DNA from: Dysidea avara
Taxonomy: Eukaryota
Direction: 5' to 3'
NCBI RefSeq assembly: GCF_963678975.1
Contig: NC_089285.1
Coordinates: forward strand, 12,026,725-12,090,724
DNA length: 64,000 nt
The notes beneath the pieces are model-generated. The model saw nothing but the letters and a program-made list of their open reading frames with translations, made no database searches and was not told the DNA's origin. The position numbers were made by a program, and so were the translations under genes. Below are positions 4,480 to 63,803 of this stretch, one piece after another; position 1 is the stretch's first letter, and each line of letters starts with the position of its first letter.

Positions 4480-5290
4480 GTGGTAGTGACATTTATTTAC
4501 ATTTGCCAAATAAACATAGAGTTTTGTAAATGCCAGCTAGATGCACATCGGATAATTGAATTGGGCTACTGGCCAGCTATGATCCTTCATCCAATTGGAA
4601 CCAGTTTCACTGTACCAGGTAGGTTATCCCACATACCAAATTTGAAGAAAATCGCCTTAGCCATTTATACCAGTGGCCAAAATTTAGCTTTATTTCTTCA
4701 TTTTTTTCTTCTTATTCTTCGTCTTTTTGCACACTTTGAAAAATTACTATGAAACACACACATGTAATCAGATTACCTTGAAATTTGGCACACATAGAGG
4801 CAGTCCAAAGGCAAATCCTAGTATCAAATTTGGCACAAAAGTGATGAATGGTTCAGGAGTTATGACCGATTATTCACGTAAAACAAGATCGATTTGTTGT
4901 CATGCCTAGAGGGAAAACTGTTTCATGAAATGAGTTTAAAATTGGTTTGTTGATAAATCAACCATTGTAAGAGTGCCTTTTGGTGGTTTGAAAACAGTTG
5001 AAATTAAGATCTTGGAGATATGACATGAAACCTAAGGTGAGTAACAATTGCGCAATCGAGTTTTGTGAATAAAATTACCAATACTTTTCATGCCTACCAG
5101 GCAAACCTCTTAGAGTAATAAGCTGAAAATTGGTGTGTGGCTGGAATAATAATCGTAGAAAGTCCTTGCAGTAGTACAGAAGAATCAGATTACAAACCAT
5201 TCAGTTATGATTCGAAAGCCAACCATGTGTAGCAAATGCGAGATTAAATACTTTAATAGAGCACTCAGTTACATTTATGGCTTGCTCCAT
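4480..5290 (-). repeat. Element X copy 1, reverse orientation; same family as 38575-39140, 50283-51990 and 63625-63803
   Basis: The reverse complement of 4730-5290 aligns to 38585-39140 (e.g. 'gtagaaagtccttgcagtagtacagaagaatcagattacaaacc' against 'ggtttgtaatccaattcttctgtactactgcaagga'). 4480-4730 aligns to the longer extension of copy 3 (51780-51990). Confidence 0.65.
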
Positions 5291-5480
5291 TATAGAATTT
5301 TCTGTTACATTGCAAGTTATCCTGTAGGGAGTTCAGCTGCAAACAGTTAATTTTATAGACTATTCAGCTACAAGCCAAGTCACCCTGCAGAGAGTTCAGC
5401 TACAAATGTATCACTGTAGAGATTCAGAACTTTACTAGCCACACTGAAGTGAGTTCAGTTATAAACAAGTCATGCATACG
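5290..5480 (-). repeat. Degenerate copy of the 30-bp satellite ('ctgaactctctacagggtgatttgtttgtag'), reverse orientation, next to X copy 1
   Basis: Units 'cctgtagggagttcagctgcaaacag' and 'ccctgcagagagttcagctacaaatg' are the reverse complement of the satellite monomer. Confidence 0.6.
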
Positions 5481-5519: not shown

Positions 5520-5700
5520 ACAATAACCATGCGACGATAGACGTATTCTATGTGACGATAAATAATAACGATGTGACGATAGATAATAACGATGTGACGA
5601 TAGAAGATAAACAAACAACGTTACCTATGCGACAATTGATGATAACTAAGTGACAATACAGATGCAGCGATAGTTCATAACCAAGCAGCGACATACCAGG
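5520..5700. repeat. Minisatellite, ~20-21-bp unit 'gatgtgacgatagataataac'
   Basis: Nine or more tandem units ('gcgacgatagacg', 'tgtgacgataaataataacgatgtgacgatagataataacgatgtgacgatagaagataa...'). Confidence 0.75.
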
Positions 5701-7640
5701 CATAAAACATGTGCAAATTATGCGGCGTGCATTAATTAGTGGTAGCTGTTGTGTTGGAAGCATTAAGATGTTAAAGGAGGCTTTAATTTCATCGCTGGTG
5801 GTGCTTATTCTTTGTAATCCTTGTCATTCTCTATCAAAAACGGATCCTAAAGTTGATGGTAATATATGTCATTAAATAATTTTCTCTATATTCCTTTTAA
5901 TGCTCAACCGTGTTTACAGTTGTACATGGATTTTTTGATAATGAGTAATGTTTACTTTGTCAGGGCTAATTCGGAAATACTGGTTTCAGTATAAGAAGAT
6001 CACAGTAATACTTGCTTACCTGCAGGTTGTACATCGTGTTTCAGTCGGGTAGAGTCACTGTTGTATGATATTTCATGAGATACACACAACACTTCCATTG
6101 CAGTCTGACATGGCTGAAGAAGAGACTTCACAGCCTGGGATTGCACCGGCAGGGACCATTAGTTCGTTATTCAGCATTGTCGCTTGTGCAGACAGCAATT
6201 GAAGTAAGACTTAGGGAAGCTATATGTACTGATATAATGTACTACTAATACTCTTTGTTCTGTAGGTTTCTGTTTTATAGTTCTGAAGGTTTAGGTCATA
6301 GGCAAAACCTATTTTTATAGAACATCTTAGCATAGAGTTACAGTGCGGTGGATGGGCGTGCCATTAAAGCCGGTTCTTCTAGTCTATAAAAATGTGCTAC
6401 TAATATTATGTACTATTTTTATGTTTGCGTTGCACTATTATTGCAGAGAGAGTTAGAAGGCTGTAGAAATAACGTGGGATACAGGCAAATGTGGATGATC
6501 CTGAAACAAAAACATCACTTAGTAGTCAAAAGGTACTCGCTGCTAGTTACTTTGCTACTAATTTTTGCTATCTGCCTTTTTCATCACACAGGAGTACTGT
6601 TCAAATGACGATGGCTGTACTTGATTCACAAGGTGCTAAAAGACGAAGAAGGCGGCAACTCAAACGACGGCTATATCAGAACAAAGTAAGATCAACTTTG
6701 TAGTTTTGAATTTGTTTCATTAAACTACAAACAGGGCCCAGACTTTGTGTGACACTTGGATGGCTATGATAAATTGAAGCCATAAATAATTCATGGTTGT
6801 ATTGATGGGTAAGTTTTTAGTGGATGGGGCATCTGTGTTTATCCATCTTGCTGTCAGAAATATTCCACATGAACCCAATGGTTAAGTTCATATTTATTTC
6901 TGAGGTAATATAAGAAAACTGTGTCATCAATCAAAACAATAATGATGATGGTTACAGACTTCCCATAATCACTCAGTACCGGAGAACTGTCCTTGCCACC
7001 ACTATCAGTACAAAGATAGAAAACTTCTAGTCCCTTTACCCAATAATGCAGCCTACTTTACCTGAGGCAGGTCGTGGACCTAGCTAATACCCGTATGCTC
7101 ACTGCCATAGATCTTCATAATGAAAACTGCAGTGTGTATCAAATCCAAGCCAAATGCAGTGTTGCCATGGTGAGACAAGATTGGCAAAATGTCAGTAGAA
7201 CACCTCTCAGCCACTTGTACACATAATCCACCTCCCAGGGTTGTTATTACTTGTGTATTGTGTGCCATATTCCAAAGGTTTTCACGCAAAGTGATATGGC
7301 TGAAAGTGATGACAACTAACAATGATCCTAGTGTCATCTTACTTCCGTACCTGTTGTCTGTGCTACAAAATAATGGTGTGGCAGGTTATAGCTGAACAAA
7401 TCTATTACCTTTATTTCTTGAACAGGTTGTCCTAGTATTGTACGATCTGATCATGGCACTGAGAACACTACCTTGGCTGCATGTCATATGGCTTTGCGTC
7501 ATAGTCATGATGATGAGTACAGTGGAGACAAAAGCTTTCGTTTTGGACCTTCAACAACAAACACAGTTGAGTCAATAGACGATATGCGTACCGTAAGCTT
7601 CCTAATTCTCGCGTGACTTCTATGACGCAATAATAATGCC

Positions 7641-9233
7641 ATGGCAATGGTGGAAGGTGTTGAACTGTATCGTTCATGGACTGTAGACCAACTTGAGGCT
7701 TTTCTACGAGAGAGACGTGTTCCTCTGTCTGGAAACAAAGAGCAGTTAGTTAAGAAAGTCACTGATATTGTTGCAACGGATGATTTAGAAGGGCAAATCC
7801 AGGCTGTACCATTTCAACGTATTGATTATCCTTCCCCTCCTGAGTTCTCTGAGCTTTCAAATGACGTTAACTGGACAGGAGATGACTTTCCACTGGTTGC
7901 AGAAAGTAGTGTTACTACTTATCTCAAAGATAGAGATGGATATACCAAGAATTTTCGAACAGGTGTTCGTCTGTGCCAATGTGGACATTTGTTTAGCTTA
8001 GAAAAGGCCATATGCAATGATTTTACATATGTTAAGGCAAAATGTAGGCCCACAATGCGACAGGTTCCTTCTTCCTACTGCTTGTTTGTTAAGTTAAATA
8101 TGTTAAATGCCACTGGAACACCTGTTGCTGGTAACTGTAAATGTCCTGCTGGCAGCACACAAAGCTGTGTGCACATTGCTGCATTGCTTATAATGCTATC
8201 CGAGATCACTCCACAAGCTTGCACAAGTGTGAGATGTGCATGGTCCAGACCTTCTCAAGGTGGAAAGCCATCTTTTTCTGTAGATCTAGATTTTGGCAAG
8301 TCATCATCAACTGGATATTTTCCATACACTGGGACCTTGGTATCATTGGATGAACTTATTCAAGGACTGGAAGATGCTGGCTGTGATGCTGGCTGTGATG
8401 CTGGGATTTGCCATTATTTTAACCAGGAATCAGAGAAAAATCAACAAGCGTTTCCATCACCAAGCTCTAATCCAGTGTTAATAGATCCTCTTGACAAATT
8501 ATGTGAAATATGTGCAAATCGTGATGTCAATAAAAGTGATTTAGTTGAAGCTTTAAGGCCTACAGCAGAAGATGTGCAACTTATACAGAACATGAGTGTT
8601 GGTCAGAGAAACAATCCTCTATGGTTAGATGCAAGGCAATGGCGAGTCACATCAAGTAATTTTGGTAGGGTGTGCAACAGACAGTTTCGACACTCCTATC
8701 CTTTATCTTTACTTAAAACTGTTTTAGATGATTATGGAACTCCTCATTCAGCAGCATTGCAATGGGGATGTGATCACGAAAGCAGTGCTGTTCAGCAATA
8801 CATGGTTGCAACCAGTGTGCAGGTTGATGAATGTGGAGTGTTTTTAAGTGTAGACTATCCTTTTCTGGCCACATCTCCTGATGGTTTCATTTGGCTTGAG
8901 AATGAAGAATTTGGTATTGTAGAAGTAAAATGTCCATATAAGCACCGTGACAGCTCCATTGAAATGGCATGTCAGGATTCTGCATTTTGCTTAAGTGTTG
9001 ATGGTAGTCAAGCAAGATTAAAACGAACACATGATTACTACTATCAAGTTATAGGCCAGCTTGCACTATCTGGTGCTAAATTTTGTGACTTTATCGTATG
9101 GACCAAGGTAGACTTTCACAGAGAAAGGATTTTACCAGATGATGAACTGTGGAGTGAAATGAGTAGAAAACTTTCTCACTTTTATATGACTACGTTGGGT
9201 GTTGAGATTTTAGCTAAATTATATAGTATGTAG
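7641..9233 (+). CDS. SAP-like / SWIM zinc finger / YqaJ (lambda-exonuclease-like PD-(D/E)XK) nuclease-domain protein, 530 aa
   Basis: Intact 530-aa ORF. An SAP-like helix motif lies at the N-terminus ('TVDQLEAFLRERRVPLSGNKEQLVKKV'). A SWIM-type CxC...CxH motif follows ('CQCGHLF...CKCPAGSTQSCVHIAALL'). The YqaJ catalytic motifs are present ('LATSPDGF...GIVEVKCPYK'). Confidence 0.65.
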   Translation: MAMVEGVELYRSWTVDQLEAFLRERRVPLSGNKEQLVKKVTDIVATDDLEGQIQAVPFQRIDYPSPPEFSELSNDVNWTGDDFPLVAESSVTTYLKDRDGYTKNFRTGVRLCQCGHLFSLEKAICNDFTYVKAKCRPTMRQVPSSYCLFVKLNMLNATGTPVAGNCKCPAGSTQSCVHIAALLIMLSEITPQACTSVRCAWSRPSQGGKPSFSVDLDFGKSSSTGYFPYTGTLVSLDELIQGLEDAGCDAGCDAGICHYFNQESEKNQQAFPSPSSNPVLIDPLDKLCEICANRDVNKSDLVEALRPTAEDVQLIQNMSVGQRNNPLWLDARQWRVTSSNFGRVCNRQFRHSYPLSLLKTVLDDYGTPHSAALQWGCDHESSAVQQYMVATSVQVDECGVFLSVDYPFLATSPDGFIWLENEEFGIVEVKCPYKHRDSSIEMACQDSAFCLSVDGSQARLKRTHDYYYQVIGQLALSGAKFCDFIVWTKVDFHRERILPDDELWSEMSRKLSHFYMTTLGVEILAKLYSM

Positions 9234-9302
9234 TTAATTTGTGTATAATTATAACGTGATATTTCAATTTGAAATATAACCATACAAATGAATTACATGT
9301 AA

Positions 9303-10736
9303 CTACTTAATAAGTTTTTCTTTTAAATTACACAATGCACATACTACAACTATCATGTCATCAACTATTCTTTTGCTGGTACGGTTACACAATGTCTCTG
9401 TAAAAATTTTGTATTCCTTAATCCTCCTTATTGCATTTTCAACTCGTATTCGCACACTGGCAATACTCCGAGATTGTCTAGCCTCTTGAGCTGCAAGTGT
9501 GCCCCCATTCAAAAAACTGGGTATAGTCAAAAAGCATCTTTTCTGGGCAAACAAGCCTCGTGCATTATATCCTTTATCAGCCAAAATTCTTTGTCCTGGT
9601 TTTAGTTCTTCTAATAATCCACTGTGCTCACTAGTGAACCTGTCACTACTGTTTCCTGAAAATCCAGCAGAAACAAAAACAAATACACCTGTAAAGGTAT
9701 CAATAGCAACCAAGTACTTCACAGTTGTATGGCTTTTATAATCACTATAAGAAGATTTCTGTGTTGCCAGGTTGCTTGGTCGCTGAATAAAAATTTCAGT
9801 ACCATCAATTATAGCTACAGAATTTGGCAATAAATCATAAGGTGCTACAGATGGACCAACACATGTCTGTGGCCATCGTATAAGCCTTTTAAATTGAGCA
9901 TTCAGAAGAGGTATCCAATGGTTCAGAATACGTGAAATAGAACTTTGCTCAACATTGAAGCGGCATGCCAAGTCACTTTGAGTATGATTGTGCCGGAGTC
10001 GCATCAACACAAGTAAAAGCTTTTGAGTTGGTGAAAGTGTTTCACTGGCTCTTTGCTTACTTGCTACTGGCTGTAACCAACAATCAATGCAATCAAATAC
10101 CTTGCGTGATATTTCAGTGTACATATTTACTTGAGAGTCATTAAGCAAAGTCACGTTAAGTCTTTGTAAATGGGTATTAAGAAATAGAATATGTTCCTTA
10201 AGCTTTACATTCTCTAAATGTAACTCTCGATTTTCCTGGAGTAAGCGCTCCACATTGCAGTCAGCTCTCAGTGGATCTGGTATTCCTTCTTCAGAAAATT
10301 CACATGGCTGCATGTAATTTGGTGTCTGAAGGTCATTGTCAGTTTCCAGTGTGTTCTGGTGTGTGTGTTGGTCACTATCAGTCATCTCCGTGTTCTGGTG
10401 TGTGTGTTGGTCACTATCAGTAATCTCCGTGTTCTGGTGTGTGTGCTGGTCACTATCGGTCATCTCCATGTTCTGGTGTGTGTGCTGGTCACTATCAGTA
10501 ATCTCCGTGTTCTGGTGTGTGTGCTGGTCACTATCGGTCATCTCCATGTTCTGGTGTGTGTGCTGGTCACTATCAGTAATCTCCGTGTTCTGGTGTGTGT
10601 GCTGGTCACTATCAGTCATCTCTGTGTTCTGGTGTGTGTGCTGGTCACTATCAGTAATCTCTGTGTTCTGGTGTGTGTGCTGGTCACTATCGGTCATCTC
10701 CATGTTCTGGTGTGTGTGTGTGTGTGTGCTGGTCAC
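9303..10736 (-). CDS. DDE_Tnp_4 (PIF/Harbinger/ISL2EU-type) transposase catalytic region, preceded by an H/T/Q-rich 13-aa tandem repeat
   Basis: An HTH is present ('LSPTQKLLLVLMRLRHNHTQSDLACRFNVEQSSISRIL'). The DDE core blocks are present ('VAIIDGTEIFIQRP', 'YLVAIDTFTGVFVFVSAGFSGNSSD', 'ILADKGYN', 'RIRVENAIRRIKEYKIF'). Confidence 0.65.
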   Translation of the reverse strand: MTSTHTHTHQNMEMTDSDQHTHQNTEITDSDQHTHQNTEMTDSDQHTHQNTEITDSDQHTHQNMEMTDSDQHTHQNTEITDSDQHTHQNMEMTDSDQHTHQNTEITDSDQHTHQNTEMTDSDQHTHQNTLETDNDLQTPNYMQPCEFSEEGIPDPLRADCNVERLLQENRELHLENVKLKEHILFLNTHLQRLNVTLLNDSQVNMYTEISRKVFDCIDCWLQPVASKQRASETLSPTQKLLLVLMRLRHNHTQSDLACRFNVEQSSISRILNHWIPLLNAQFKRLIRWPQTCVGPSVAPYDLLPNSVAIIDGTEIFIQRPSNLATQKSSYSDYKSHTTVKYLVAIDTFTGVFVFVSAGFSGNSSDRFTSEHSGLLEELKPGQRILADKGYNARGLFAQKRCFLTIPSFLNGGTLAAQEARQSRSIASVRIRVENAIRRIKEYKIFTETLCNRTSKRIVDDMIVVVCALCNLKEKLIK

Positions 10737-10815
10737 TATCAGTCATCTCCGTGTTCTGGTGTGTGTGCAGGTCACTATCAGTCATCTCCATGTTCTGGTG
10801 TGTGTGCTGGTCACT
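10340..10815. repeat. 39-bp coding minisatellite (~12 units 'ttctggtgtgtgtgctggtcactatcagtaatctccgtg') carrying an expanded (TG)9 microsatellite at 10709-10732
   Basis: Periodic 39-bp units. One unit has (tg)9 instead of (tg)4, a +10 nt change that shifts the frame by one. Confidence 0.85.
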
Positions 10816-11427
10816 GTACGTCTCCTCACTGGGCTGTTGGCTGTGCTGACAAGGTTGCAAACTGTGCAATTCTTCATAGTGCTGCTCAGCATTAGAATGA
10901 TCAAGAACTTTACTTCTAATAGGTTTCTTTGGTAGTGGCCTTCTCTCTAACAGTCTTCTCTTCTTTGGTGCAGAAGTAGTTGCAGAATAGCTAGTTGGCT
11001 TTTTAAAATAAATTGGTAGGACATCTTGGTTAACTCTACTAGGCCCTTTAAAATCAGCATAATGCACGTTGCATATTGCAACTTCCTCTGAAGGTTGCCA
11101 CTTAGTTCTTTGCAAGCCTTGCCGGGTATGGTTGATCTTTTCAATTACAGCTCGTTTGACAAGCTCGGGCATACTGTGAATGTTGTGCAAAGTTAAATAC
11201 TCACGCCTCTGGCAGCCTTCAATTCGTGGCAGTGGGCAATCACACAGCCGATTTCCAGCAACATCTTCCGGGCACTTTCCTTTACTATTGTTGCAACCCC
11301 AAACACAACACTGGCGTTTCGACATATTCATTAAATCGCGCACTAGGAGGTTAACAAGAAATGATCTTTCAGCATGTGTTACCATTGAGATTTCATGAAA
11401 TATGCGAATTACGAATTCTCGTAACAA
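10687..11427 (-). CDS. THAP zinc-finger DNA-binding domain. This is the N-terminal part of the same transposase gene, separated from 9303-10736 by a +1 frameshift
   Basis: 'MSKRQCCVWGCNN...' is the C2 half and '...AICNVHYADF' the CH half of a THAP C2CH module. The ORF ends in the same 13-aa repeats ('QHTHQNMEMTDSD'). Its frame differs from 9303-10736 by one. Confidence 0.55.
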   Translation of the reverse strand: MLREFVIRIFHEISMVTHAERSFLVNLLVRDLMNMSKRQCCVWGCNNSKGKCPEDVAGNRLCDCPLPRIEGCQRREYLTLHNIHSMPELVKRAVIEKINHTRQGLQRTKWQPSEEVAICNVHYADFKGPSRVNQDVLPIYFKKPTSYSATTSAPKKRRLLERRPLPKKPIRSKVLDHSNAEQHYEELHSLQPCQHSQQPSEETYSDQHTHQNMEMTDSDLHTHQNTEMTDSDQHTHTHTPEHGDDR

Positions 11428-11819
11428 TTTCCTACGACTATTAGACCACGCATATCGTCTATTAATAATTGTGGCAAATTATAAATATCTGACTGTCTAT
11501 AGAATCGAAAGCTGGTGGGCTCAGTTGCGGAATTGTGTCACCGATTGGTGGATTAACATGTTTAAGGTAATTTTAATGTATATGTAACTTGTATTGAGTA
11601 ATGTTTCTCTTCTTTTGCTTGTTTCAAATAAGCATCTTCATCTTTCAAATCTTTGCTCCATTCCTTCAGTCTTTGTCTATAACCTGTTTATATACCGATT
11701 GTATAGTCACAATTCCTCCATCATTGTTGTTGGGTCTTGGTTTTTAGTCAATGTAGTAGAGAGTTTAGAATTGTGAGTTCTCTTTTTTACCAGAGCATTT
11801 CCGTAAAGCTTTCAGTTCT

Positions 11820-12185
11820 TCAACGAAATTTTGAATTCTCTTGATGACCAGGGGGAAATTCAAAAGGTGCCAGTGACGTTGGATTATGATTAGGGTCATT
11901 CAAAAACCTTCTATTAATGAAACTTTCAACTTTGGCTATTCCATTGTCAGGATGATCACTAACATCCAAGGTACAAATAACACTCATCTCATCATGCCCA
12001 GAAGATAAAAGGCAGTTGACAATATACTCCGGCAACATTTTCTTCATTAGGTCTACTGTAATATTAGAAGCAGGATTTGGCTCACATTCATCAACATTGC
12101 TATGAAATGGAAATGGCACAATTAAAATGTGTTGGTTTGATCTAGGTTGAAATACAGTTACCCTTATACACAATTCATGTCCCAT
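11820..12185 (-). CDS. Unassigned 121-aa ORF downstream of the THAP start of the transposase gene; function unknown
   Basis: ORF only. I recognise no motifs. Confidence 0.15.
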   Translation of the reverse strand: MGHELCIRVTVFQPRSNQHILIVPFPFHSNVDECEPNPASNITVDLMKKMLPEYIVNCLLSSGHDEMSVICTLDVSDHPDNGIAKVESFINRRFLNDPNHNPTSLAPFEFPPGHQENSKFR

Positions 12186-12234
12186 GCATTAAGTTTTAAA
12201 TTTGATCTCATTATGAGTTCACACATTAGCCCTC

Positions 12235-12960
12235 ACACCATTGGATTTTTGCAGCATAACTTGGGGTAGTGCTAAAAGCTGGAACGGAATAGAACCAATT
12301 GGGGCACGTGCCAAGTAGAAAAATCGTTTGAGACGGACTTTGCATCGTTTCCAACTGCCACACAGTGACTAGAATTGTGCTAGAGTTCATTTCCTTCTAC
12401 TTATATGCATGCTAGAATTAAATCCCGCTCTCGGAGTTTCTATTTAATGCCTGCCACATGGCATGTTGTGTTCTTACCAATCCATCAAATTCTGTTTAAT
12501 CCTGATGTAGAATTGCTTCCTTATCATTCTAAAAGGTAAGCTACTGTAGTATTTTCATGTTATAGTCGTATCCAAGTCTTTAGTGACAGCGAGGATGGTT
12601 TTCTGAAGTCTGCCAGCATGGGCAATAATTTACGAAAGTTAACCACAGTGTATGTTAGTGGCTGTGAATCATATGCTTATAGTGCTTACAAAATAATAGT
12701 TTAGCAGGTTAAATTATAGTTTTTTCAGCGTAGGTGATTGCAAAACGCATTCGTGCAGTGGGAATTAAATAGAAACTTTAAGCGAGCGATTTCTACCATG
12801 CCTACAAGTAGAAGAAAACTAACTTCAGCACAATTCTAGTCATCATGTAATGGTAAGAAATGGTGTACAATCTGCAAAAACAATTTATTAACTTGGCGCG
12901 CCTCCGTTCCGTTCCATTCCGGCTTTTAGCACTACCCCATAACTTGGACTACGATGGAGG
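12235..12960. mobile_element. Foldback/MITE-like element with long inverted arms
   Basis: The left end 'cataacttggggtagtgctaaaagctggaacggaa' is the reverse complement of the right end 'ttccgttccattccggcttttagcactaccccataacttgg'. Inner inverted matches: 'tgactagaattgtgctag' pairs with 'cagcacaattctagtca', and 'attaaatagaaact' occurs on both arms. Confidence 0.65.
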
Positions 12961-13696
12961 CTGCATTAACCCATACAGGTGTAACCATATTACACTGCTC
13001 CCTATGGACAAAAGAACTTGATCAAGGTATCATTGCTGAAAAGATTTTTATTGAAATTAATGAGCCTTATCCGCAAGTACGTCACAACTTAAAATGGCGA
13101 CAAGACTGGGGTTGTTTGTACACTGTGCCATTGGAAGGTGTAACGTTTCGAGATGTTCCCAGTGAAGAACAAAGGAGAAAAGTGTGGTAAGGCATCAATA
13201 ACTAACTTCCGATGTTGGGGGATGCATTTTCGCGCTTTGAAAAACATCCTAGGTCTGGTTTTGCTAAATTTAACATTTTGTCGGTTCGGCAAGCATAGTA
13301 CAAACTAGGTATTTTCCTTTCCACTCTATTCTACGACTGTTTACTAGTGCGAAAATGCGGAGTAATGTGTGGGGTGTCAAGACCATGTTTTCTGACAAGC
13401 CGCCATGATGTCATGTCGGAGCCGAGTCAGGCCACCTATCCACCTTGGTTATGCTGAACGGAGTGCCACCATTGACTGTTCAACGTAGGCCTGGCTCAGT
13501 GGTTTCAATCAAGGAAGCTTCTTTATACTTAACTGTTTTATAAAGCAATGTATTTCTTAGATGGTGAAGTCAGTGTCTTGACTGCAGTGTGTTGTGGTGA
13601 CCATATGTCAACGAAGAGTAGTGAAACTCCAGACAGTTGCAGCTCTAGGAACGACAACCTTGGTAACACTACTGAACATGTATAAGGCAGATTTTA

Positions 13697-14500
13697 ATGA
13701 CCGTTTTGCTAGATTGTGAAGGTAATGCTTCAAATGCAGTTTGTGGTACTTCAAGGGAGATACCTGGTGAGATTTGTGGTCCACATTGTTTGTCATTTTA
13801 TACATGTCATGTAGATGATGAGCACAATCCAGTGTGTAATGATAGCCATGTTTCAGTGAAAAGCAATGTGATTCCTGGTAAGAGAACATTGCGTTCCCTA
13901 CTTTACGTATTTAAACACGAGTTTATTTAGATTATTGTCCAGACAACAGTAACGAGTTGGGGGATGGTGGTGGTGACTATGGAATCCAAGCTAATGAAGA
14001 AATTGACCTTGGTAGGTTCATATAATGGCTAGTTTAAATTATTCTGTATTAAAATTGTGTAGGTAATGTCTCTGATCCATGCTACAATGTATCAATGTAG
14101 AGTATTGACATGTTTGGTAAGAAGTATTTGCATATAACAGATTTTCCTATAAATTTTATTCTAGATTGTGAAGGAAATGACTGTAATTCAGCTTATGAAG
14201 ATGAAAGTGGTGGTGATGAAAATTTAATAGGGACGATATTGTTTTATTGAATGAGAGTGACATTCCTGGTGCATCCCTTGGTGGCAAAGATCCATCTGAG
14301 CTAAATATTGTCCAATTGAAGTGATGGCTAGTTTGCCGTGGGGCACCAGTGACTGGGAAAAAACCAGAATTGATTCAAAGGTATGCGCACTCATTGACAG
14401 TAACAGGTTATGATAAGACTTCCAGGGTTTGTGACTACATCAAGTATGGCTGGGATGTGCTTTTGATTGATCCTGATGATGGTGAAAATGTCTAACGTAA
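13697..14500 (+). pseudogene. Candidate 5' exons of nuclease gene 2: Cys-rich segments and an SAP-like exon interrupted by an in-frame TGA
   Basis: Cys-rich frames ('CEGNASNAVCGTSREIPGEICGPHCLSFYTCHVDDEHNPVCN', 'DCEGNDCNSAYEDESGGDE'). An SAP-like frame reads 'SELNIVQLK*WLVCRGAPVTGKKPELIQRY', then a GT donor ('caaag|gtatgc'). The '*' is a TGA. Confidence 0.3.
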
Positions 14501-14936
14501 ATTACGAGCAACAGCTTTAGTGCACAATAGTTGTGATAGTGATTCTCTGCTTCAATCTGTACCAACTACCAAAGATAAGTGTAGGACGAAGGAATTGTAC
14601 AAAGCTCCTGAAATTACGTTTGGGACTATTTTCAATTTTCTAGTTGACCATAAGGTGTTGCTTAAAAAAGCCGTTCATGTGGAGAGCATAACGGAGAAAA
14701 GAGAGAACTGTACATCTGAGAATGTTGGTGAACAGACTGGTAGCTCATCTGGAACTTCAGAACCTGTAACATATACTTGTAGTCTAGACAAAGCATATCG
14801 TTTCTTCCAGGATGGCCATGTCCAAAATGTAAGATTTCATCCAATGACAAGTCCTGTATTGGGGCAGATGTGCTTCCTTCCATGAAAAAAGGCAAAATGT
14901 ATTGTGTATGGATAGTATTATCACAGCATACTGCAC

Positions 14937-16667
14937 GTGTCAAAAAGGCATTCTGCATCTGTCCAGCTGGTCTGTCTGGTTGCTGTAACCATGTTACAGC
15001 ATGTTACAGCAACCTTGTACTGCATGGAGGAGTACTTTCGCTTGGGCCTTAATGAAGATGACGCAAAAGGTTGCACAGAAAAACGGCAAACTTGGAACAT
15101 ACCGAAAGCTTCAAAGGTGGATGCATGTCCCACTAATTTAGTTTCATTGACTAAAAAGGTTTATGGTGTCGAGAAGAGGCCTGCAGTTTACACTGTAAAT
15201 AAATGGGATTGCCGGGCAACATCAAAAAGACAGGTTGAGTCTGCTGATAGAAGATCTAAATTGAGAAAGAGACTGCTTAACATTGACCAAGCCAGAAAAG
15301 ACACTGTAACTCTTTCTGTTGCCTCAGCCACCTATAACATGCAAAGAAAGAAAGCTATTGAAGCCCAAACGATGGTTATGAGCTATGGGACTTCATGTTT
15401 TTTGCAATTATTAGACGATGATCCAGCTCCATCATCAGTGACAGACAACAGAATGCTGCTGACAAGAGACGAGCGTCTTGCAAGAGTTGAAGCACAGAAA
15501 TTAAAATTCCAGAAAGATATGTCCACATTACTTAAGCAGGCTAACTGTGACCACAGTTACAGTGCCAGTTCTATTTCACCAGAACACCACAAAGTTGAGA
15601 ATAAACCCCCGCCACTACATGTTGTTAGGAACTTCTATGAAGAACATGTTTGCATTAGCCCAACTGAAGCCATTGAGATTGAAGCTATGACACGTAAACA
15701 ATCGTTCTCAGATCTCTGGCATCAAGAGCGTACATTTAGGATCTCTGCTTCGATAATGAAGACTGTTTGTCACAGAAAGCGTGATACTGATATAAAGTTT
15801 TTTCTCACTGGTAAGTTGTGTCCAAAGGCTATCAACAGTGCAGCTATCAACTATGGAAATATCAACGAAGATACTGCTATTAGAAGCTATATTGATTATC
15901 AAGAGAAGAGGGGTCTACAATTAACTGTTCACAAATGTGGCTTGCACATCAATCCTTCAGTACCCTGGCTAGCTGCCACCCCAGATTCCATAGTTGAAAT
16001 TGGACAGGACATGGGATACTTGGAAGTCAAATGCCCTTACGTATGTAAAACAAAACCAATAGCTGAGGCTGCATTGCAGCAATTTTCATTTTGCCTACAA
16101 AGCAACAATGGGATGTTACAGCTGAAGAAAAAACATCAGTACTTCTTTCAAGTGCAGACACAACTTTTTGTCACTCAGCTTCCATGGTGCAATTTTGTTT
16201 TATGGGCCCCAAATGATGCTGTTTATGTAGAAAGAATTTTTTGCGATGATTCTTTTATCGAAGATGCAGTTTCTAAGGCTAGAGCTTTTTATTTTGACAA
16301 ATTTTTGCCTTCACTTTTGCCATATGTAATAATTTCTGACAGCTGTGAAGACCGATTTGCAGTTATCACAACAGAGGTTGTCCAGATTTGTGACAGTGCT
16401 GAGGTTTCTGACGATGTTAAGATAGTTAACAATTCCGAGGCTTGTGATGATGTTGAAGTTAAGATTGTTGAGGCTAGTGATGATGTTGAAATTTTAAGCG
16501 TTTCTATTGTACCCAGCCTAACTCACATACGAATGTATTGCAGCAGCAACATTGCAGAAAGCATGAAGTTAGTGGTGATGGCAATTGCTTATATTATGCC
16601 GTTGCTCATCAGGCTGGATATATTGGACATTCTTCTCGTGGGGACATCTTTATTGGAAAGCAACTGA
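14937..16667 (+). CDS. SWIM zinc finger + YqaJ (lambda-exonuclease-like) nuclease, paralog of 7641-9233. The main exon probably ends at 16499 and splices to the OTU exon
   Basis: The SWIM motif ('CICPAGLSGCCNHVTACY') starts ~17 nt upstream of this M-initiated ORF (14920-14973), within the overlapping 14870-15052 ORF in the same frame. The YqaJ motifs are present ('LAATPDSIVEIGQDMGYLEVKCPYVCK'). Paralogous blocks to gene 1 are present ('LWHQERTFRISASI' against 'LWLDARQWRVTSSN'). Confidence 0.6.
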   Translation: MSKRHSASVQLVCLVAVTMLQHVTATLYCMEEYFRLGLNEDDAKGCTEKRQTWNIPKASKVDACPTNLVSLTKKVYGVEKRPAVYTVNKWDCRATSKRQVESADRRSKLRKRLLNIDQARKDTVTLSVASATYNMQRKKAIEAQTMVMSYGTSCFLQLLDDDPAPSSVTDNRMLLTRDERLARVEAQKLKFQKDMSTLLKQANCDHSYSASSISPEHHKVENKPPPLHVVRNFYEEHVCISPTEAIEIEAMTRKQSFSDLWHQERTFRISASIMKTVCHRKRDTDIKFFLTGKLCPKAINSAAINYGNINEDTAIRSYIDYQEKRGLQLTVHKCGLHINPSVPWLAATPDSIVEIGQDMGYLEVKCPYVCKTKPIAEAALQQFSFCLQSNNGMLQLKKKHQYFFQVQTQLFVTQLPWCNFVLWAPNDAVYVERIFCDDSFIEDAVSKARAFYFDKFLPSLLPYVIISDSCEDRFAVITTEVVQICDSAEVSDDVKIVNNSEACDDVEVKIVEASDDVEILSVSIVPSLTHIRMYCSSNIAESMKLVVMAIAYIMPLLIRLDILDILLVGTSLLESN

Positions 16668-16909
16668 GAATGTTGGCATTGACGACTATGCAGAAGTATC
16701 CTGGTGTACGCATAGAACATGGACTATCACAGCATCAGTGGGAACAAAAGAAATCCTGCATCTTACAGCCTAGTGATTGGGGTGGTGATTTAAAAGTACA
16801 CCTACTTGCCATTGCAATTGGTAGAGAGACAGTTGGATCACTGGAAATGGGAACGAGTTTACATGTGCACGAAGATTTTTATGCCACTCTCCGCCAGTTC
16901 CAAAGATGA
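16544..16909 (+). CDS. OTU-family cysteine-protease domain exon, probably the 3' exon of the SWIM-YqaJ gene via a 44-nt GT..AG intron (16500-16543)
   Basis: Cys motif 'SGDGNCLYYAVAHQ', 'SDWGGDLKVHLLAIAIGRETVGSL' and C-terminal 'LHVHEDFY' are OTU-like. The intron 'gtttctattgt...gtattgcag' has GT/AG ends, and its length (44 ≡ 2 mod 3) restores the reading frame from the upstream ORF. Confidence 0.5.
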   Translation, partial: QQHCRKHEVSGDGNCLYYAVAHQAGYIGHSSRGDIFIGKQLRMLALTTMQKYPGVRIEHGLSQHQWEQKKSCILQPSDWGGDLKVHLLAIAIGRETVGSLEMGTSLHVHEDFYATLRQFQR

Positions 16910-17074
16910 GAGGTGGAATTTTTATTCCTGTTAACATTACAGAATTAATCAGCCAGTAGAAACAATACGAACCATCACCACTACTCATAATATATAATGG
17001 TGTGAATCATTATGATTCTACAACTTTTTGTAAATAGTTTTTTTCAGTTTAATCAATACAAGTATTATACATAT

Positions 17075-18640
17075 TTAGCATACCAAAGGGGGTTCAAAGT
17101 TACTAAGCATGCAGCAAACATATATAATATTACTTATGGAGTCCCACATGGATCCTGGAAGTGTACCCTGTAAAAGCTTGTACTCTTTGACACGGCCAAT
17201 CGCTCGTTCGACATGAACTCTTAAACGAGCAATTTTCTTTGTTATAAAAACATCAGTAGCATCCATCTGTCTACTCTTGAAGAAATGGTGGAATGTTTAG
17301 GCATACACCATGAGGAATCAATAAATCTTGAATCGTGAAGCCTTTGTCGGCCATGATTTCATCCCCAGGTTCCAATTTGTTTAACAACCCACTGACTTGC
17401 ACCAACTTTTGATCCAAAATAGACCCTTCATATGCCTCGGACACAAATGAAATGGCTCTACTTGGGGTTATTCCAATTAATACTTTACGGTATTTTTATT
17501 CTTGTATGCTGAGAAGGTACAGGATTGGGCTAATAGAGACGAAGGTCTCTCAACTGAAAATTCTGTAGCATCAATGATGATCCGAGTGTTGGGATACTCT
17601 TTCTTAAATGGCTCTGGCATATACTTTTTCACAATGTGCCATGGTGGAAACCTTTCCACTGATTTAAAATTGTGATACATTAAATATACCCAGGTGTTAT
17701 ACCAAATCTACTACTCGTGAAACAATTTATCCAGGTGTTATACCAAATCTACTACTTCGAACGCTACTTGTGAAACAGTAGATTGTGATATACCAAATCT
17801 ATTGGCAATGTCAAGCTCCGGAAACCCCGTTCGAAGCCTAACAAAGGTCAAAAACAATTGCTCCTTCAGTGGAAGCTTGCATGGTGGTCCAGCCTTTACA
17901 TCACTATAATCACACTCGCTTCGTTTTCCACTCCACTGCCACATAAGTAAGGCATCTTCCTCTAACATTTCTTCATAGAATGCTATTAGTGTTTCATAAC
18001 TTGAAAATCCTGTGTAAAACTTCAATAAGTGTTTATCATGTCTAACATTTTCCAATCTAAATAAACTTCTGTTAAGTTTACTTTCTGCTTCTGCCAGCTG
18101 GATTTTCAATTGATCGACCTCGTTTTGTAGGCTTTGAACAGATTTTTTTTCATACTGTTGTTCAGCAATCAGTCCATCTTCTAACTCTGGAACATCTACA
18201 TTTTCTGTTATGCCAGGGGTGTTAGGAAAGGGCATCGTTTCAGTTACTGGGTTTCTGCATGGACAAGTACTTGGCTTTGAAGGGTCATCTGATAGAGTCT
18301 GCAAAGCATTTTGGGATGTCAATGACATTCAATTTTTGGTTTTTGTCCATGGAAAATGGGAAGGGGCTGCTGTTGGTTTAAGGAGCCAGCTTTTACCTCC
18401 TAAAAGCAAGTAATAATCACTTGAAGCAAAATGTTCAGAACAAATTTTGGTGTTTTTGTTTACTGTGAAATCATCACCAATATCACGACGAATTAATTTA
18501 ATCCATTTCTTCCCCTTTGCTGACTTTATATCAGGAAAGCCATGGAAGGAAACCTTTGGCAAATTCAATTCATGCCATGCCACATTTCTGCCAGAAGAGT
18601 TATGACAATCTGGAACACAGCAGTCTATTCAGTTGTAACT
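17075..18640 (-). pseudogene. THAP + DDE_Tnp_4 transposase, second and decayed copy (multiple frameshifts, no ATG at the THAP start)
   Basis: THAP: 'CCVPDCHNSSGRNVAWHELNLPKVSFHGFP...TKICSEHF'. HTH: 'LKEQLFLTFVRLRTGFPELDIANRFGISQSTVSQ'. DDE blocks 'RIIIDATEFSVERP', 'GDEIMADKGF' and 'RVHVERAIGRVKEYKLLQ' lie in different frames. Confidence 0.6.
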
Positions 18641-19959
18641 GTTTATCAGTGTTAATTGCTAGGCTAAGACTAAAGAGAAAGAAAAGTAAGTGCTGTTATA
18701 AAAGTATATAAAGCCTGTAGTACGTGTTATCACGCTGATAACTGTCTTACCTGTAGATTCAATGAGCTTTATCTTTCCTTTAGCTCATAAAGTTTCTTTT
18801 CATTGGTAGCTAACCCTAGCTACACTGTTTTCCAGAGTTCGCTGAAGCACAATTTTATCCAGTCATGTGTTGGCTTGGGCCCATGCGTTAACAGCATCAG
18901 CTCGCTTTAGTCCACCATTTATAATTGGACAGAGAATAAGTAGCAGTCGAGGTTTACTACTAGAGCCTTATCACTACATTCGGATTTCTTGCCAACTGAA
19001 GTGATCGACATTTTAAAAAACGTACATGCGATTCTACCCCCTCCCCCTAGCGTACCATTTATACGCTCGCGAAAAAGCAGAAAATTGTTGACCACCCCTT
19101 ACATGGTTTGATATTGGGTTTCCCAGAAATGGGTACTTCTGCTCTATTTCTCGTGTTACCCTATCAAAATCAGTTTTTTATGGGTAGTGTTTGTATAATG
19201 CCATGACACTGGCTATTCTGGTGTGGAACTTGGTGGTTGACAGACCATCCATTATGCCTTTTATATGCACAAGTGACTTGTATCTAATCAGTTTTTACCG
19301 TGTTTTGATGGTTACATCAATGTTCATCACATACATAATTGGAAAGGAGAATGGTGTTGGAATGTCTTTATCTTCAGCTGAAAATAGCACAATTGTAGGC
19401 TTCTCATCTGATGCTTTTTCAGTGTGGGAGACTACTGGTACCTCCTGAATGTGTTTCACATTACAAACTTATTGGTATAATAAATGTCAAGACCACTCCA
19501 TGAATCATTATTTACATCCTACAAGAGTTGAAAATGGTGGGCTTTTATGTGCAATATCCCATTTTGAGTTCACTGTCATTCTGCTCAGTTGCGTTTGTTG
19601 GTGGTGGTGGTTTGCACTATCACTGGTTACTGACTGCACGGTACTAGTTCTATTAAGCTGCGTACAAAAAGATAGAATATATAACATGCATAAAAATAGT
19701 TTTAAAATTTTGCACTTCATTAATTAATTGCCTGAGGCATTTCTTGTCCCCAAGTGCAACTAAACCGAGCTGCTCCAAATCTTCATAATTCAGAAGTAGA
19801 AGTACTCTTTGCCTTCATCAGAAGGTCTCAATAGCCTGCACGTATGGGTAGCTAAACATTAGGTATACAGCCACACCTCTTCATCAAAGCCATTCTCTTC
19901 CAAGAGCACACATTGGTCATTAATTTTGTCCACTTCTTTGCAGTGTATGTATAAATTGC

Positions 19960-20140
19960 ATCAATACACATTGAACAGAAAGCCTGATCAGTTTTAATCT
20001 GCTAAGTTTTTGACAGACAGGCATCATTGGAGAGGTCACATAGGTTGCTCTAGTGGTTACAGTATCAAGAAGTATTCAAGGTTTGATATGACTGCAATAA
20101 ATTCACAAGTAAATGTGCGAGCAAGCTGAAAACAAAGTAT
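19960..20140 (+). pseudogene. Fragment homologous to the C-terminus of the 44619-46922 transposase
   Basis: DNA and protein similarity: 'RHHWRGHIGCSSGYSIKKYSRFDMTAINSQVN' against 'DRFHWKGHVGCSSGYNLKNYSTFDMTAINSQVN'. Confidence 0.6.
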
Positions 20141-20689
20141 ATTGGCCCTTCACTTTCAGTGATTGACAGTTGGGTACATCTTGAGATAAAAGCCATTCTT
20201 TCTTTTGATGCACGAACAAGTCCTGTCTAAATGAGGTGGATAGTGTCATGGGTTCTCACTGACACAACAAATCGATTTCAACAATCTCCGGACATCATAA
20301 TCATATAGCTATGCAATCTACATTATTTTCAAAGCAATCATTGTATCATACAGTACTATGGAAGTTTGGGTTTTTCTGGACAAAAGTATCACTCAAAAAC
20401 CATCTCACAATACCACCCTAGCACCTTGGCAACATTGTTTAGGTATAACCAAGCCCAAAAGCTTTGTTAATGCAGAAATACTTTGTGAATAAGCATAAAT
20501 GCAGAAAACATGCTTGGTGAATAAGTTCTAGCACTAGTTCTCACCTTAAGGCTTAAACCATTGTTTTTCAACTTGTAGGGTAGTGAGGTTAACAAAATGC
20601 TTTCTGTGTGCTTGGTTCCATGCGGTTTGCAACTACACACGTGCAGTGCTCTTAAGATGGTTGCAAAACAATAGCACAACTTTGCATAT

Positions 20690-35809: not shown

Positions 35810-38575
35810 TAATTTGCAGCTGATCCCTCTACTGGGTGACTTGAAATGTAGCTGAACTCTCTACAGGGTGATCTGCTTGTACGTAGATGAACTCTTTACA
35901 AGATTCTCTCTACAGGGTGACTTGACTCTAGCTGAACTCTCTGCATGGTTATCTGTTTGTAGTTGAATTCTCTACAGGGTGATTTGTTTGCAGCTGAATT
36001 CTCTACATGGTGGTTGCTTTGTAGCTGAACTCTCTAAAAGGTGACTTCTTCTAGCTGAACTCTCTACAGGGTGATTTTTTCATAGCTGAACTCTCTACAG
36101 GGTGATTTTTTTGTAGCTGAAATCCCTACAAGGTAACTTCTTCTAGCTGATCTTTCTACAGGGAGATTTGTTTGTAGCTGAGTTCTCTACAGGGTGTTTG
36201 TTTGCAGCTGAACTCTCTACATGGGAGTTTCATTGTAGCTAAATTCTCTACAATGTGACTTCTTCTAGCTGAATTCTCTACAGGGTGACTTGTTTGTAGC
36301 TGAAATCCCTACAAGGTAACTTCTTCTAGCTGATCTTTCTACAGGGAGATTTGTTTGTAGCTGAGTTCTCTACAGGGTGTTTGTTTGCAGCTGAACTCTC
36401 TACATGGTAGTTTCTTTGTAGCTGAACTCTCTACAATGTGACTTCTTCTAGCTGAACTCTCTACAGGGTGACTTGTTTCTAGCTGATCTCTCTACAGGGT
36501 GACTTGTTTCTAGCTGAACTCTCTACAGGATGATTTGTTTGCAGCTGAACTCTCTACATGATGATTTCTTTGTAGCTGAACTCTCTACAGGGTGATTTGT
36601 TTGTAGCTGAAATCCCTACAAGGTAACTTCTTCTAGCAGATCTTTCTACAGGGAGATTTGTTTGTAGCTGAGTTCTCTACAGGCTGATTTGTTTGCAGCT
36701 GAACTCTCTACATGGTAGTTTCTTTGTAGCTGAACTCTCTACAATGTGACTTCTTCTAGCTGAACTTTCTACAGGGTGACTTGTTTCTAGCTGATCTCTC
36801 TACAAGGTGACTTGTTTCTAGCTGAACTCTCTACAGGGGATTTGTTTGCAGCTGAACTCTCTACATGGAGGTTTCTTTATAGCTGAACTCTCTACAAGGT
36901 GACTTCTTCTAGCTGATCTCTCTACAGGGTGATTTGTTTGTAGCTGAACTCTCTACAGGTGATTTGTTTGTAGCTGAACTCTCTACAAGGTGATACTTCT
37001 AGCTGATCTCTCTACAGGATGACTTGTTTCTAACTGAACTCTCAACAGGGTGATCTGTTCATAGCTGAACTTTCTACTGGGTGATTTGTTTGCAGCTGAA
37101 CTCTCTACATGGTGGTTTCTTTGTAGCTGAACTCTCTACAAGGTAACTTCTTCTAGCTGATCTTTTTACAGGACATATCTGTTTGTAGCTGAGTTCTCTA
37201 CAGGGTGATTTGTTTGCAGCTGAACTGTCTACATGGGAGTTTCATTGTAGCTAAACTCTCTACAATGTGACTTCTTCTAGCTGAATTCTCTACAGGGTGA
37301 CTTGTTTCTAGCTGATCTCTCTACAGGGTGACTTGTTTCTAGCTGAACTCTATACAGGCGATTTGTTTGCAGCTGAACTCTCTACAGGGTGATTTATTTG
37401 CAGCTGAACTCTCTACAAGGTGACTTCTTCTAGCTGAACTCTCTACAGAGTGATTGATTTTTTTGCAGCTGAACTCTCTACATGGTGGTTGCTTTGTAGC
37501 TGAACTCTCTAAAAGGTGACTTCTTCTAGCTGAACTCTCTACAGGATGATTTGTTTGCAGCTGAACTCTCTACATGGTGCTTTCTTTGTAGCTGAACTCT
37601 CTACAGGGTGATTTGTTTGTAGCTGAAATCCCTACAAGGTAACTTCTTCTAGCTGATCTTTCTACAGGGCGATTTGTTTGTAGCTGAGTTCTCTACAGGG
37701 TGTTTGTTTGCAGCTGAACTCTCTACATGGTAGTTTCTTTGTAGTTGAACTCTCTACAATGTGACTTCTTCTAGCTGAACTCTCTACAGGGTGACTTGTT
37801 TCTAGCTAATCTCTCTACAGGGTGACTTGTTTCTAGCTGAACTCTCTACAGGTGATTTGTTTGCAACTGAACTCTCTACATGTTGGTTTCTTTGTAGTTG
37901 AACTCTCTACAAGGCAACTTCTTCTAGCTGATCTTTCTACAGGGTGATTTGTTTGTAGCTGAATTCTCTACAGGGTCAGCTAAACTCTCTACAAGATGAC
38001 TTCTTCTAGCTGAACTGTCTACAGGGTGATTTGTTTGTAGCTGAACTCTCTACAGGGTGATCTGTTCGTAGCTGAACTCCCTACAAGGTAACTTCTTCTA
38101 GCTAATCTTTTTACAGGGCGATTTGTTTGTAGCTGAGTTCTCTACAGGGTGATTTGTTTGCAGCTGAACTCTCTACATGGTAGTTTCTTTGTAGCTGAAC
38201 TCTCAACAATGTGACTTCTTCTAGCTGAACTCTCTACAGGGTGACTTGTTTCTAGCTGATCTCTCTACAGGGTGACTTGTTTCTAGCTGAACTCTCTACA
38301 GGGGATTTGTTTGCAGCTGAATTCTCTACATGGTTGTTTCTTTATAGCTGAACTGTCTACAAGGTGACTTCTTCTAGCTGATCTCTCTACAGGGTGATTT
38401 GTTTGTAGCTGAACTCTCTACATGATGGTTTCTTTGTAGCTGAACTCTCTACAAGGTGACTTCTTCTAGCTGATACAGGGTGACTTGTTTCTAGATGAAC
38501 TCTCTACAGGGTAACTTGCATGTAGCTGAATTGTCTATCAGAGTAACTGTTTGTAGCTGAATTCCGTACAGAATA
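35810..38575 (+). repeat. Satellite array; 30/31-bp monomers forming a ~61-bp higher-order unit ('ctgaactctctacagggtgatttgtttgtag' + 'ctgaactctctacaaggtgacttcttctag'), ~45 dimers
   Basis: Direct reading. Uninterrupted for 2.7 kb. Confidence 0.95.
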
Positions 38576-39140
38576 TCTTACAATTCTATAATGGAATAAG
38601 TTATAAACATAGCTGAATGCTCTATTAGGGTGACTGTTCTATTAGAGTATCTCGTTTTAGCATTTGCTACACGTAGTTGCCTTTCGAATCATAACTCAGT
38701 GGTTTGTAATCCAATTCTTCTGTACTACTGCAAGGATTTCTATGATGATTATTCCAGCTACATACTGATTTTCAGCTCATTGCTCGCCTGGTAGATGTGA
38801 AAACTAATTGTTTTTTATTCATAAAAATCGATCGCGTAATTTTGACACAGGTTGCGTTTTGTGTCATATCTCCATGGTCTTTATCTCAATTCCTTTCAAA
38901 CCACAAAAAGGCACTCCTACAATGGTTACTCCATCTACATATCAAGTTTCAACTCATTCCTCCAAGGGGTTTACCCTGTAGGCATGACAGACCTTCGACC
39001 TTATTTTACGCACATAATTGGTCATAACTCCGTGTATGATCATCGGATTCCTACCAAACTTGGTACTGAAATCCGCCTTAATGAGCCCTTCAAGTGTGCC
39101 AAATTTCAGCCCTATCCGAGTACGCATTTGTGTTTTATGT
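38575..39140 (+). repeat. Element X copy 2 (starts 'gaatgctctattagggtgactgttctattagagtatctcg'), truncated at 39140 by FB-1 sequence
   Basis: Aligns with 50283-50383 + 51283-51770 and with the reverse complement of 4730-5290. Confidence 0.7.
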
Positions 39141-39141
39141 A

Positions 39142-39620
39142 AATATTTTAATAACGACAATTCAGGTGAATTTGGTGATGCTTGGTCTTGGCACAAAATT
39201 CACCTGAATTGTCATTATTAAAATTTTTACCTTTAACCTACCATCACAGCCATTTCTTGGCCACCACCTTGGATTTCACATCTTTTTTCACCATAGCCTT
39301 TCTGAGGGCCGCACTCTTTTTTTACAGCTTGGCTGTTTTGAATTAGATTTCACTTCTTTTTGTTTTTGTATACCACTATACCCCAAAGCCGAACCATACC
39401 TCCCTTGTAGAGAGGTCAGCTACAAAGAAATCACCCTGCTTCATCTTTTCTTCTTCCTGTGGTAAAGAAAAAATGATAGGTTAAAAAAAGCCCTAAAGGC
39501 GGCTATAGGCCGGCTTTGGGGTATACAAAAACAAAAAGAAGTGAAATCTAATTCAAAACAGCCAAGCTGTAAAAAAAGAGTGCGGCCCTCAGAAAGGCTA
39601 TGGTGAAAAAAGACCTCAAG
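39142..39620. mobile_element. Rearranged FB-1 fragment (right arm, one satellite monomer, then left arm)
   Basis: 'taaatattttaataacgacaattcaggtgaatttgg...' followed by '...tcccttgtagagaggtcagctacaaagaaatcaccctg' and then '...aaagccctaaaggcggctataggccggctttgggg...cagccaagctgtaaaaaaagagtgcggccc'. Confidence 0.6.
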
Positions 39621-39699
39621 GTATGGTTCGTTTCCATTTTTGGATGTTTATTGACCTCACATTTTCATCCACAATTGGATGATTATTGCAAAGGAACAA

Positions 39700-63625: not shown

Positions 63626-63803
63626 TAGAATTCTATAATGGAGTAAATAAATTAGCTGAATGCTCTATTAGGGTGACTGTTCTATTAGAGTATCTCGATC
63701 TCGCATTTGCTACACGGAGTTGACTTTCGAATAATAATTCAGTGGTTTGTAATCCGATTCTTCTATACTACTGCAAGGACTTTCTATGAAGATTATTCCA
63801 GCT
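63625..63803 (+). repeat. Element X copy 4 (5' part), followed by an unrelated inverted-repeat segment (63833-64000, 'caattccggacac' / 'gtgtccggaattg') cut by the window end
   Basis: 'gctgaatgctctattagggtgactgttctattagagtatctcgatctcgcatttgctacacggagttgactttcgaataataattcagtggtttgtaatcc'. Confidence 0.6.

Follow-up and report, generated by a model that had tools for sequence, protein, structure and literature searches.

Paired nuclease and transposase genes in the sponge Dysidea avara point to two distantly related ISL2EU-type transposon families

Results

In a 64,000-nucleotide stretch of the genome of the demosponge Dysidea avara (NCBI RefSeq assembly GCF_963678975.1, contig NC_089285.1, positions 12,026,725 to 12,090,724, forward strand; hereafter the window, whose own numbering is used throughout), a nuclease gene on the forward strand twice faces a transposase gene on the reverse strand. 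We conclude, with a probability of about 0.9, that these two pairs (copy 1 and copy 2) are cut-and-paste DNA transposons of ISL2EU type (PIF/Harbinger-like, "PHIS" superfamily), inserted independently and drawn from two distantly related families. The assignment was made by setting domains, inverted ends, AT flanks and two-gene content against the published definition, in which an ISL2EU element has a THAP/helix-turn-helix (HTH)/DDE transposase, a YqaJ domain in a second open reading frame (ORF2), and an AT duplication (PMC4482050, PMC4122938, PMC9179366). An original prediction, made from the letters of the window, had placed convergent pairs at 7641-11427 and 13697-18640, and the ORF map and Pfam searches confirmed both. 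Those intervals cover the genes, but the elements are wider, at 7577-11460 and ~13062 to ~18640. The same prediction had guessed at ISL2EU, and the domains, inverted ends and AT flanks do fit the published definition.

The features of copy 1 are as follows.

7577-11460: copy 1 element, complete, 3,884 bp, both genes within inverted ends
7575..7576: AT outside the left end, putative target-site duplication; A precedes
7577..7589 (+): left 13-bp terminal inverted repeat, AGACGATATGCGT, 100% complementary; L001/L002 homology ends there
11448..11460 (-): right 13-bp terminal inverted repeat
11461..11462: AT outside the right end; T follows
7641..9233 (+): ORF2 nuclease, intact, 530 aa; SAP, then SWIM-like, then YqaJ/lambda-exonuclease domain
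8136-8174 (+): SWIM-like motif, CKCPAGSTQSCVH
8874-8936 (+): nuclease PD...ExK
9303..11325 (-): transposase; THAP-like C2CH N-terminus, coding minisatellite, HTH_Tnp_4, DDE_Tnp_4; one frameshift
9815-9795 (D), 9587-9567 (D), 9452-9429 (E) (-): DDE_Tnp_4 triad
10351..10815 (-): 39-bp coding minisatellite, (QHTHQNTEMTDSD)n, within the transposase

A perfect 16-nt inverted repeat (7574-7589 / 11448-11463) brackets the copy 1 gene pair, and window 7574-11463 is the exact alignment span of two further contigs, L001 (98% nucleotide identity, which we take as a sign of recent activity) and L002 (85%). These contigs hold the two closest relatives of the copy 1 nuclease, and the same convergent pair is present on both. 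The three insertions share aAT|AGACGAT(A/G)TGCGT...ACGCATATCGTCT|ATt, with flanks that are otherwise unrelated. Because the ends are identical at three insertions in unrelated flanks, copy 1 is a complete element. By likeness to a published empty site, we infer that copy 1 inserted at A|AT|T with duplication of the AT; copies of ISL2EU-2_Pxyl read AAT|TIR...TIR|ATT (TIR, terminal inverted repeat), and the empty site proves AT duplication in that case (Han et al. 2015, Figure S1; PMC4482050).

The copy 1 nuclease (7641-9233, +) matched Pfam SAP (3e-7) and YqaJ (4e-18), is 97% identical to protein P0001, and aligned with the lambda-type exonucleases 3SYY and 1AVQ with the D...ExK residues kept. 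On the opposite strand, ORF 9303-10736(-) matched HTH_Tnp_4 (2e-18) and DDE_Tnp_4 (7e-37), and the N-terminus of the transposase is encoded by an upstream ORF, 10687-11427(-). The frameshift between them is due to an 8-bp (CA)n expansion in one minisatellite unit (~10712-10727), which is the only lesion in copy 1; the element had been described as near-intact with a single microsatellite frameshift, and this proved accurate. The number of 39-bp units varies among insertions (window 10351-10815, L001 ~8670-9070, L002 ~8650-9440), and the array is a hypervariable, slippage-prone linker joining zinc finger and HTH in the transposase of the copy 1 family (family 1). Copy 1 is a single slippage event short of autonomy. 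Motifs of the nuclease (PD...ExK) and of the DDE triad (DGT or DAT, DKG, VE..I) were seen in copy 1 and in copy 2.

Copy 1 sits inside decayed integrase-core-like sequence (5600-7576 and 11463-11590). When its flanks were joined in frame by hand they matched Pfam PF24764 rva_4 (E 1e-8) across the junction, and the surrounding sequence is probably an older mobile element.

Copy 2 has the following features.

~13062 to ~18640: copy 2 element, decayed, right end lost; from a lineage with long inverted ends and an OTU-fused nuclease
13062..13393 (+): left long terminal inverted repeat, decayed, beginning AT|GAGCCTTATCCGCAAGTACGTCAC; 64-69% identity to the ends of L003
14274-14381 (+): SAP exon, in-frame TGA at 14322-14324
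14520..16667 (+): nuclease body, SWIM-like and YqaJ; frameshifts near 14880 and 15010
14954-14992 (+): SWIM-like motif, CICPAGLSGCCNH
15978-16037 (+): YqaJ PD...ExK
16538..17037 (+): OTU cysteine-protease domain, C-terminal portion of the nuclease gene
17075..18622 (-): transposase pseudogene; THAP (18622-18329), HTH_Tnp_4 and DDE_Tnp_4 fragments

The inverted end of a related locus, L003, matched window 13068-13393 (blastn, E 2e-27), and this places the left end of copy 2 at ~13062. When the L003 inverted end and the copy 2 left end were run against the entire window by sensitive blastn, no right end was found, and the similarity of both L003 and another relative, L004, to copy 2 ends at the start of the THAP domain; copy 2 is therefore right-truncated. 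Read with its stop as W, the SAP exon matched Pfam SAP (3e-7), and ORF 14937-16667(+) matched YqaJ (1e-10). The two frameshifts of the nuclease body surround the SWIM-like motif. The OTU domain (16538-16909) matched Pfam at 8e-4, under the cut-off, and its Cys motif (DGNCLY, 16577-16600) and His motif (NHYDS, 17005) lie in different frames, so that the domain is frameshifted. The OTU exon had been claimed beforehand, and the claim holds to the extent that both catalytic motifs are present. The copy 2 transposase (Pfam pieces in 17075-18583, -) yielded THAP (4.7e-15 when read from CCVPDC), HTH_Tnp_4 (4e-15) and DDE_Tnp_4 in three fragments, including 3e-13 and 1e-5. In-frame stops and frameshifts interrupt it, at least two of each. 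No ATG was found 5' of the THAP domain, where TGA and TAG stand directly 5' of CCVPDC. Thus the in-frame TGA of the SAP exon and the frameshifted transposase without an ATG were as predicted, but the damage, with further stops and with frameshifts in the SWIM region and the OTU domain, is greater than was claimed. Copy 2 is a dead, right-truncated relic.

Both in-frame stops examined in copy 2 (18329-18331 and 14322-14324) are TGA. At 18329-18331 the intact relative L004 has R, consistent with CGA-to-TGA decay at a CpG. An NCBI entry, P0075, "uncharacterized protein [Dysidea avara]", is 100% identical to the copy 2 ORF. Repeated TAGATTGTGAAGG motifs occur in the long inverted ends of the copy 2 lineage (L003 5586-6254 / 11779-12464) and recur upstream of the copy 2 SAP exon (window 13697-14180); they may be subterminal repeats bound by the transposase, or else short ORF2 exons in repeated form.

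A protein search with the copy 1 nuclease found 73 relatives, and a search with the hand-joined copy 2 nuclease found 56. The original prediction had named in advance what would tell against a two-gene module, namely genes that do not lie together elsewhere and inverted ends that leave the nuclease out. Among the related loci with sufficient downstream sequence (L001-L009), a DDE_Tnp_4 gene or pseudogene lies convergent with the nuclease gene at 9/9, and in copy 1, L001, L002, L003 and L006 both genes lie between the inverted ends, so neither objection was borne out. The DNA of L004 matches copy 2 at 75% identity over 14139-17029 and 17075-18624, and L004 has intact ORFs of 871 aa (YqaJ and OTU) and 545 aa (THAP-HTH-DDE). 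Between the inverted ends of L003 (~680 bp) and of L006 (156 bp) lies in each case a YqaJ(-OTU) gene with a THAP-HTH-DDE gene convergent to it; AT stands outside both ends in L003 and L006, in L003 in the context T|AT|A. Paralogous copies are many, in clusters that reach 96 member sequences and are spread over several contigs. In the window itself, tblastn found no further copies of either gene, and the two pairs share 29% (nucleases) and 27% (transposases) protein identity, close to the ~30% first reported.

Conservation among these relatives bears on the domains of the second gene. Most homologues retain the catalytic PD...ExK residues. A SWIM domain had been proposed for both nucleases; Pfam zf-SWIM matched neither window protein even at E 10, but the motif CxC(P/A)AG...CxH is conserved in 38/42 long relatives of the copy 1 nuclease and in 48/56 relatives of the copy 2 nuclease (86/98 together), and one relative, P0074, matched Pfam SWIM at E 0.0024, just under the cut-off. 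From this pattern, "SWIM-like" seems a fair label. In relatives of copy 2 the OTU domain passes Pfam (4e-6 to 6e-9). The OTU region is reached by 32 of the 56, most of which retain both the Cys and the His motif, and the motifs are conserved down to ~40% identity. ORF2 of the copy 2 lineage runs SAP, SWIM-like finger, YqaJ nuclease and OTU cysteine protease, and at the level of sequence the conservation of the OTU motifs implies that a deubiquitinase-like activity may be selected in a transposon accessory protein.

The window holds other repeats. Between the two ISL2EU copies, 12262-12939 is a 678-bp unit resembling a miniature inverted-repeat transposable element, with inverted arms of ~190 bp (72-88% complementarity) and ends that resemble neither ISL2EU end. 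Short-period satellite arrays with strong AT skew lie at ~35900-38500, 49550-50300, 61000-63800 and 5288-5476, and a repeat of ~600-850 bp (4631-5476) recurs in reverse orientation at 38488-39142, 51278-51860 and 63455-63802. A 767-aa ORF at 44619-46922 (+) has no Pfam match; part of it (46637-46809) is 84% identical to a 173-bp segment just right of copy 2 (19952-20124), a likeness that suggests another repeated element. ORFs at 39679-40437 and 43659-44138 gave weak Pfam matches, to KASH (1e-6, though no single stretch passes by itself) and to Nrf1_DNA-bind (2e-4, under the cut-off), which are probably spurious or from decayed sequence.

Discussion

The architecture found here is ordinary for ISL2EU. 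Most autonomous elements of this group have two ORFs (Han et al. 2015, PMC4482050), and the Spy paper (PMC4122938) and a teleost survey (PMC9179366) give the same ISL2EU architecture as Han et al. Since pairing with YqaJ and AT duplication are part of the published definition, the core of our finding was already known. The Dysidea elements share with ISL2EU a transposase with HTH_Tnp_4, DDE_Tnp_4 and an N-terminal zinc finger (THAP in copy 2, a putative THAP-like finger in copy 1), a YqaJ exonuclease domain encoded in both copies by a second ORF convergent with the first, terminal inverted repeats around both ORFs, AT flanks in A|AT|T context (the three family-1 insertions), and an animal host. 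Their size, 3.9-6.9 kb, compares with a published mean of 4.8 kb (PMC4482050). They differ in their host, as PHIS elements were absent from sponges in the 2015 survey (PMC4482050), in a C-terminal OTU domain on ORF2 of the copy 2 lineage, of which our literature search found no mention together with ISL2EU, and in the four-cysteine insert of the family-1 zinc finger, which Pfam THAP does not recognise.

Other known systems fit less well. PIF/Harbinger elements are alike in having two ORFs, a DDE_Tnp_4 transposase with HTH, cut-and-paste movement and short duplications. Their partner protein, however, is a DNA-binding Myb/SANT protein, whereas we found no Myb/SANT match and SAP and YqaJ instead (as the original prediction had pointed out), in a SAP/SWIM-like/YqaJ nuclease. 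Their duplication is 3 bp, whereas the flanks here share AT (AAT/ATT) with no 3-bp direct repeat. PIF/Harbinger in the strict sense was rejected on these two grounds. Spy has a related DDE domain and A/T-rich palindromic insertion sites, but one ORF, no THAP and no duplication (PMC4122938); two ORFs inside inverted ends, and THAP in copy 2, exclude membership. The second gene resembles lambda exonuclease, YqaJ and viral alkaline exonuclease (PD-(D/E)XK) recombination nucleases, but here the domain is joined to SAP, to a SWIM-like finger and, in some cases, to OTU. Unlike lambda-type recombination systems, the element encodes no RecT/Redbeta-type annealing partner.

OTU proteases are carried by other eukaryotic mobile elements, such as Helentrons. 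There too an OTU cysteine protease is fused to a mobile-element protein; in Dysidea the carrier is a DDE transposon and the fusion partner a YqaJ nuclease.

Several observations weigh against the ISL2EU assignment. Published ends are 6-259 bp long and usually start with GG, in a target A|AT|T of which AT is duplicated (PMC4482050); the copy 1 ends begin with AG, and at ~680 bp the ends of L003 are longer than this range. Taking the AT for a duplication and not for a part of the ends follows the published case by analogy. No right inverted repeat for copy 2 emerged when 12300-14300 was compared with 18500-20500 by exact-seed and blastn-short searches. The copy 1 N-terminus gave no Pfam THAP match even at E 10. 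The claim of a THAP domain in both transposases thus stands for copy 2; copy 1 has a C2CH/AVPTIF-like signature in its place. An hhalign comparison with the copy 2 THAP profile put C2CH and P..F in register, weakly (probability 4%, E 0.01), and a weak fold test with an AlphaFold model (pLDDT 80) returned THAP 2JM3 as the top Foldseek match in the PDB (E 2.9, TM 0.37-0.44). The roles we give the nuclease and the OTU domain in transposition are ones we infer purely, and the literature gives the function of ISL2EU ORF2 as unknown (PMC4482050).

The family-1 finger has a consistent pattern of its own. PF05485 was found on none of ~10 full-length family-1 relatives, and more distant relatives do carry it. 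Among 17 family-1 N-termini, C6, C11, C18, C28, C30, C38, W76, P78, C85, H88 and P104 are invariant, with C18, C28, C30 and C38 forming the four-cysteine insert. Judged by these residues, the N-terminus may be a longer-spaced form of the THAP C2CH/AVPTIF pattern, making it a candidate THAP-like finger.

We considered whether a two-gene host cluster could have been duplicated locally, as a segment, and then diverged, as the shared orientation and layout of the two pairs, 1.6 kb apart, might suggest. Their proteins are only 27-29% identical and there is no DNA similarity between the pairs, whereas each has far closer relatives elsewhere (98% nucleotide identity for copy 1, 75% for copy 2). Their ends also differ, at 13 bp for copy 1 against several hundred bp in the copy 2 lineage, and copy 1 has inverted ends and AT flanks of its own at its boundaries. 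Local duplication, whose chance is practically nil, is refuted by the closer relatives that lie at other loci and end at the same bases; these relatives and the pairing at 9/9 loci bear out the earlier view of a conserved architecture rather than a recent local duplication. A second reading would take the genes for domesticated host genes, one for a HARBI1-like nuclease partner and one for a YqaJ repair protein, and not for mobile elements. The copy 1 nuclease ORF is indeed intact, and the NCBI annotation lists the copy 2 ORF among Dysidea proteins. Domestication is at odds with the inverted ends and their AT flanks, with the many paralogues (clusters of as many as 96 member sequences, spread over several contigs), with frameshifts in both transposases together with stops, and with the insertion of copy 1 in decayed integrase-like sequence. 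We rejected this reading on the ends, copies, lesions and insertion context, and regard it as extremely improbable.

A rival that concerns the nuclease alone deserves more attention. The nuclease could be a passenger, a captured viral or host gene dispensable for transposition, with some other selfish role, anti-host or repair-modulating. The unknown function of ORF2 in the literature leaves room for this, relatives of the Spy group transpose with one ORF (PMC4122938), and the presence of OTU in the fusion hints at an interaction with the host and not at DNA chemistry. We nevertheless consider a passenger unlikely, at a level that calls for continued attention. The pairing, the orientation and the order SAP, SWIM-like, YqaJ are retained across lineages less than 30% identical, and the catalytic PD...ExK in most homologues. 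The retained pairing and catalytic residues therefore indicate selection within the element, and do not thereby show the step that the ORF2 protein serves.

A working model of ISL2EU transposition in Dysidea can be drawn around what we observed: the domain content of both genes, inverted ends flanked by AT, the recurrence of these ends at other insertion sites, and intact DDE and PD-ExK motifs. The N-terminal zinc finger of the transposase (THAP or THAP-like) and its HTH would bind the element ends, and the DDE domain would excise the element and, cutting A|AT|T with a stagger of 2 bp, insert it there, giving the AT duplication. The ORF2 protein, tethered to DNA through its SAP and SWIM-like modules, may serve as a 5'-3' lambda-exonuclease-type nuclease acting on the double-strand breaks of excision or on the element ends. 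It could in this way channel repair and raise transposition or donor survival. In the copy 2 lineage a protein of the host or of the element might be stripped of ubiquitin, or of a ubiquitin-like modifier, by the fused OTU domain.

A DDE_Tnp_4 transposon with its own lambda-exonuclease-type nuclease is textbook ISL2EU, and to that concept our analysis adds nothing. We put at slightly short of even the chance that three points, taken jointly, are undescribed: ISL2EU elements in a sponge, diverse and recently active; a lineage that bears OTU; and a family-1 four-cysteine THAP-like finger in place of the canonical THAP. Models listed by NCBI as "uncharacterized protein [Dysidea avara]" are transposon ORFs. 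The known host range of ISL2EU widens to Porifera, and the near-intact copy 1, one 8-bp slippage from a full reading frame, together with the OTU-bearing lineage, provides starting material for studies of the role of the nuclease.

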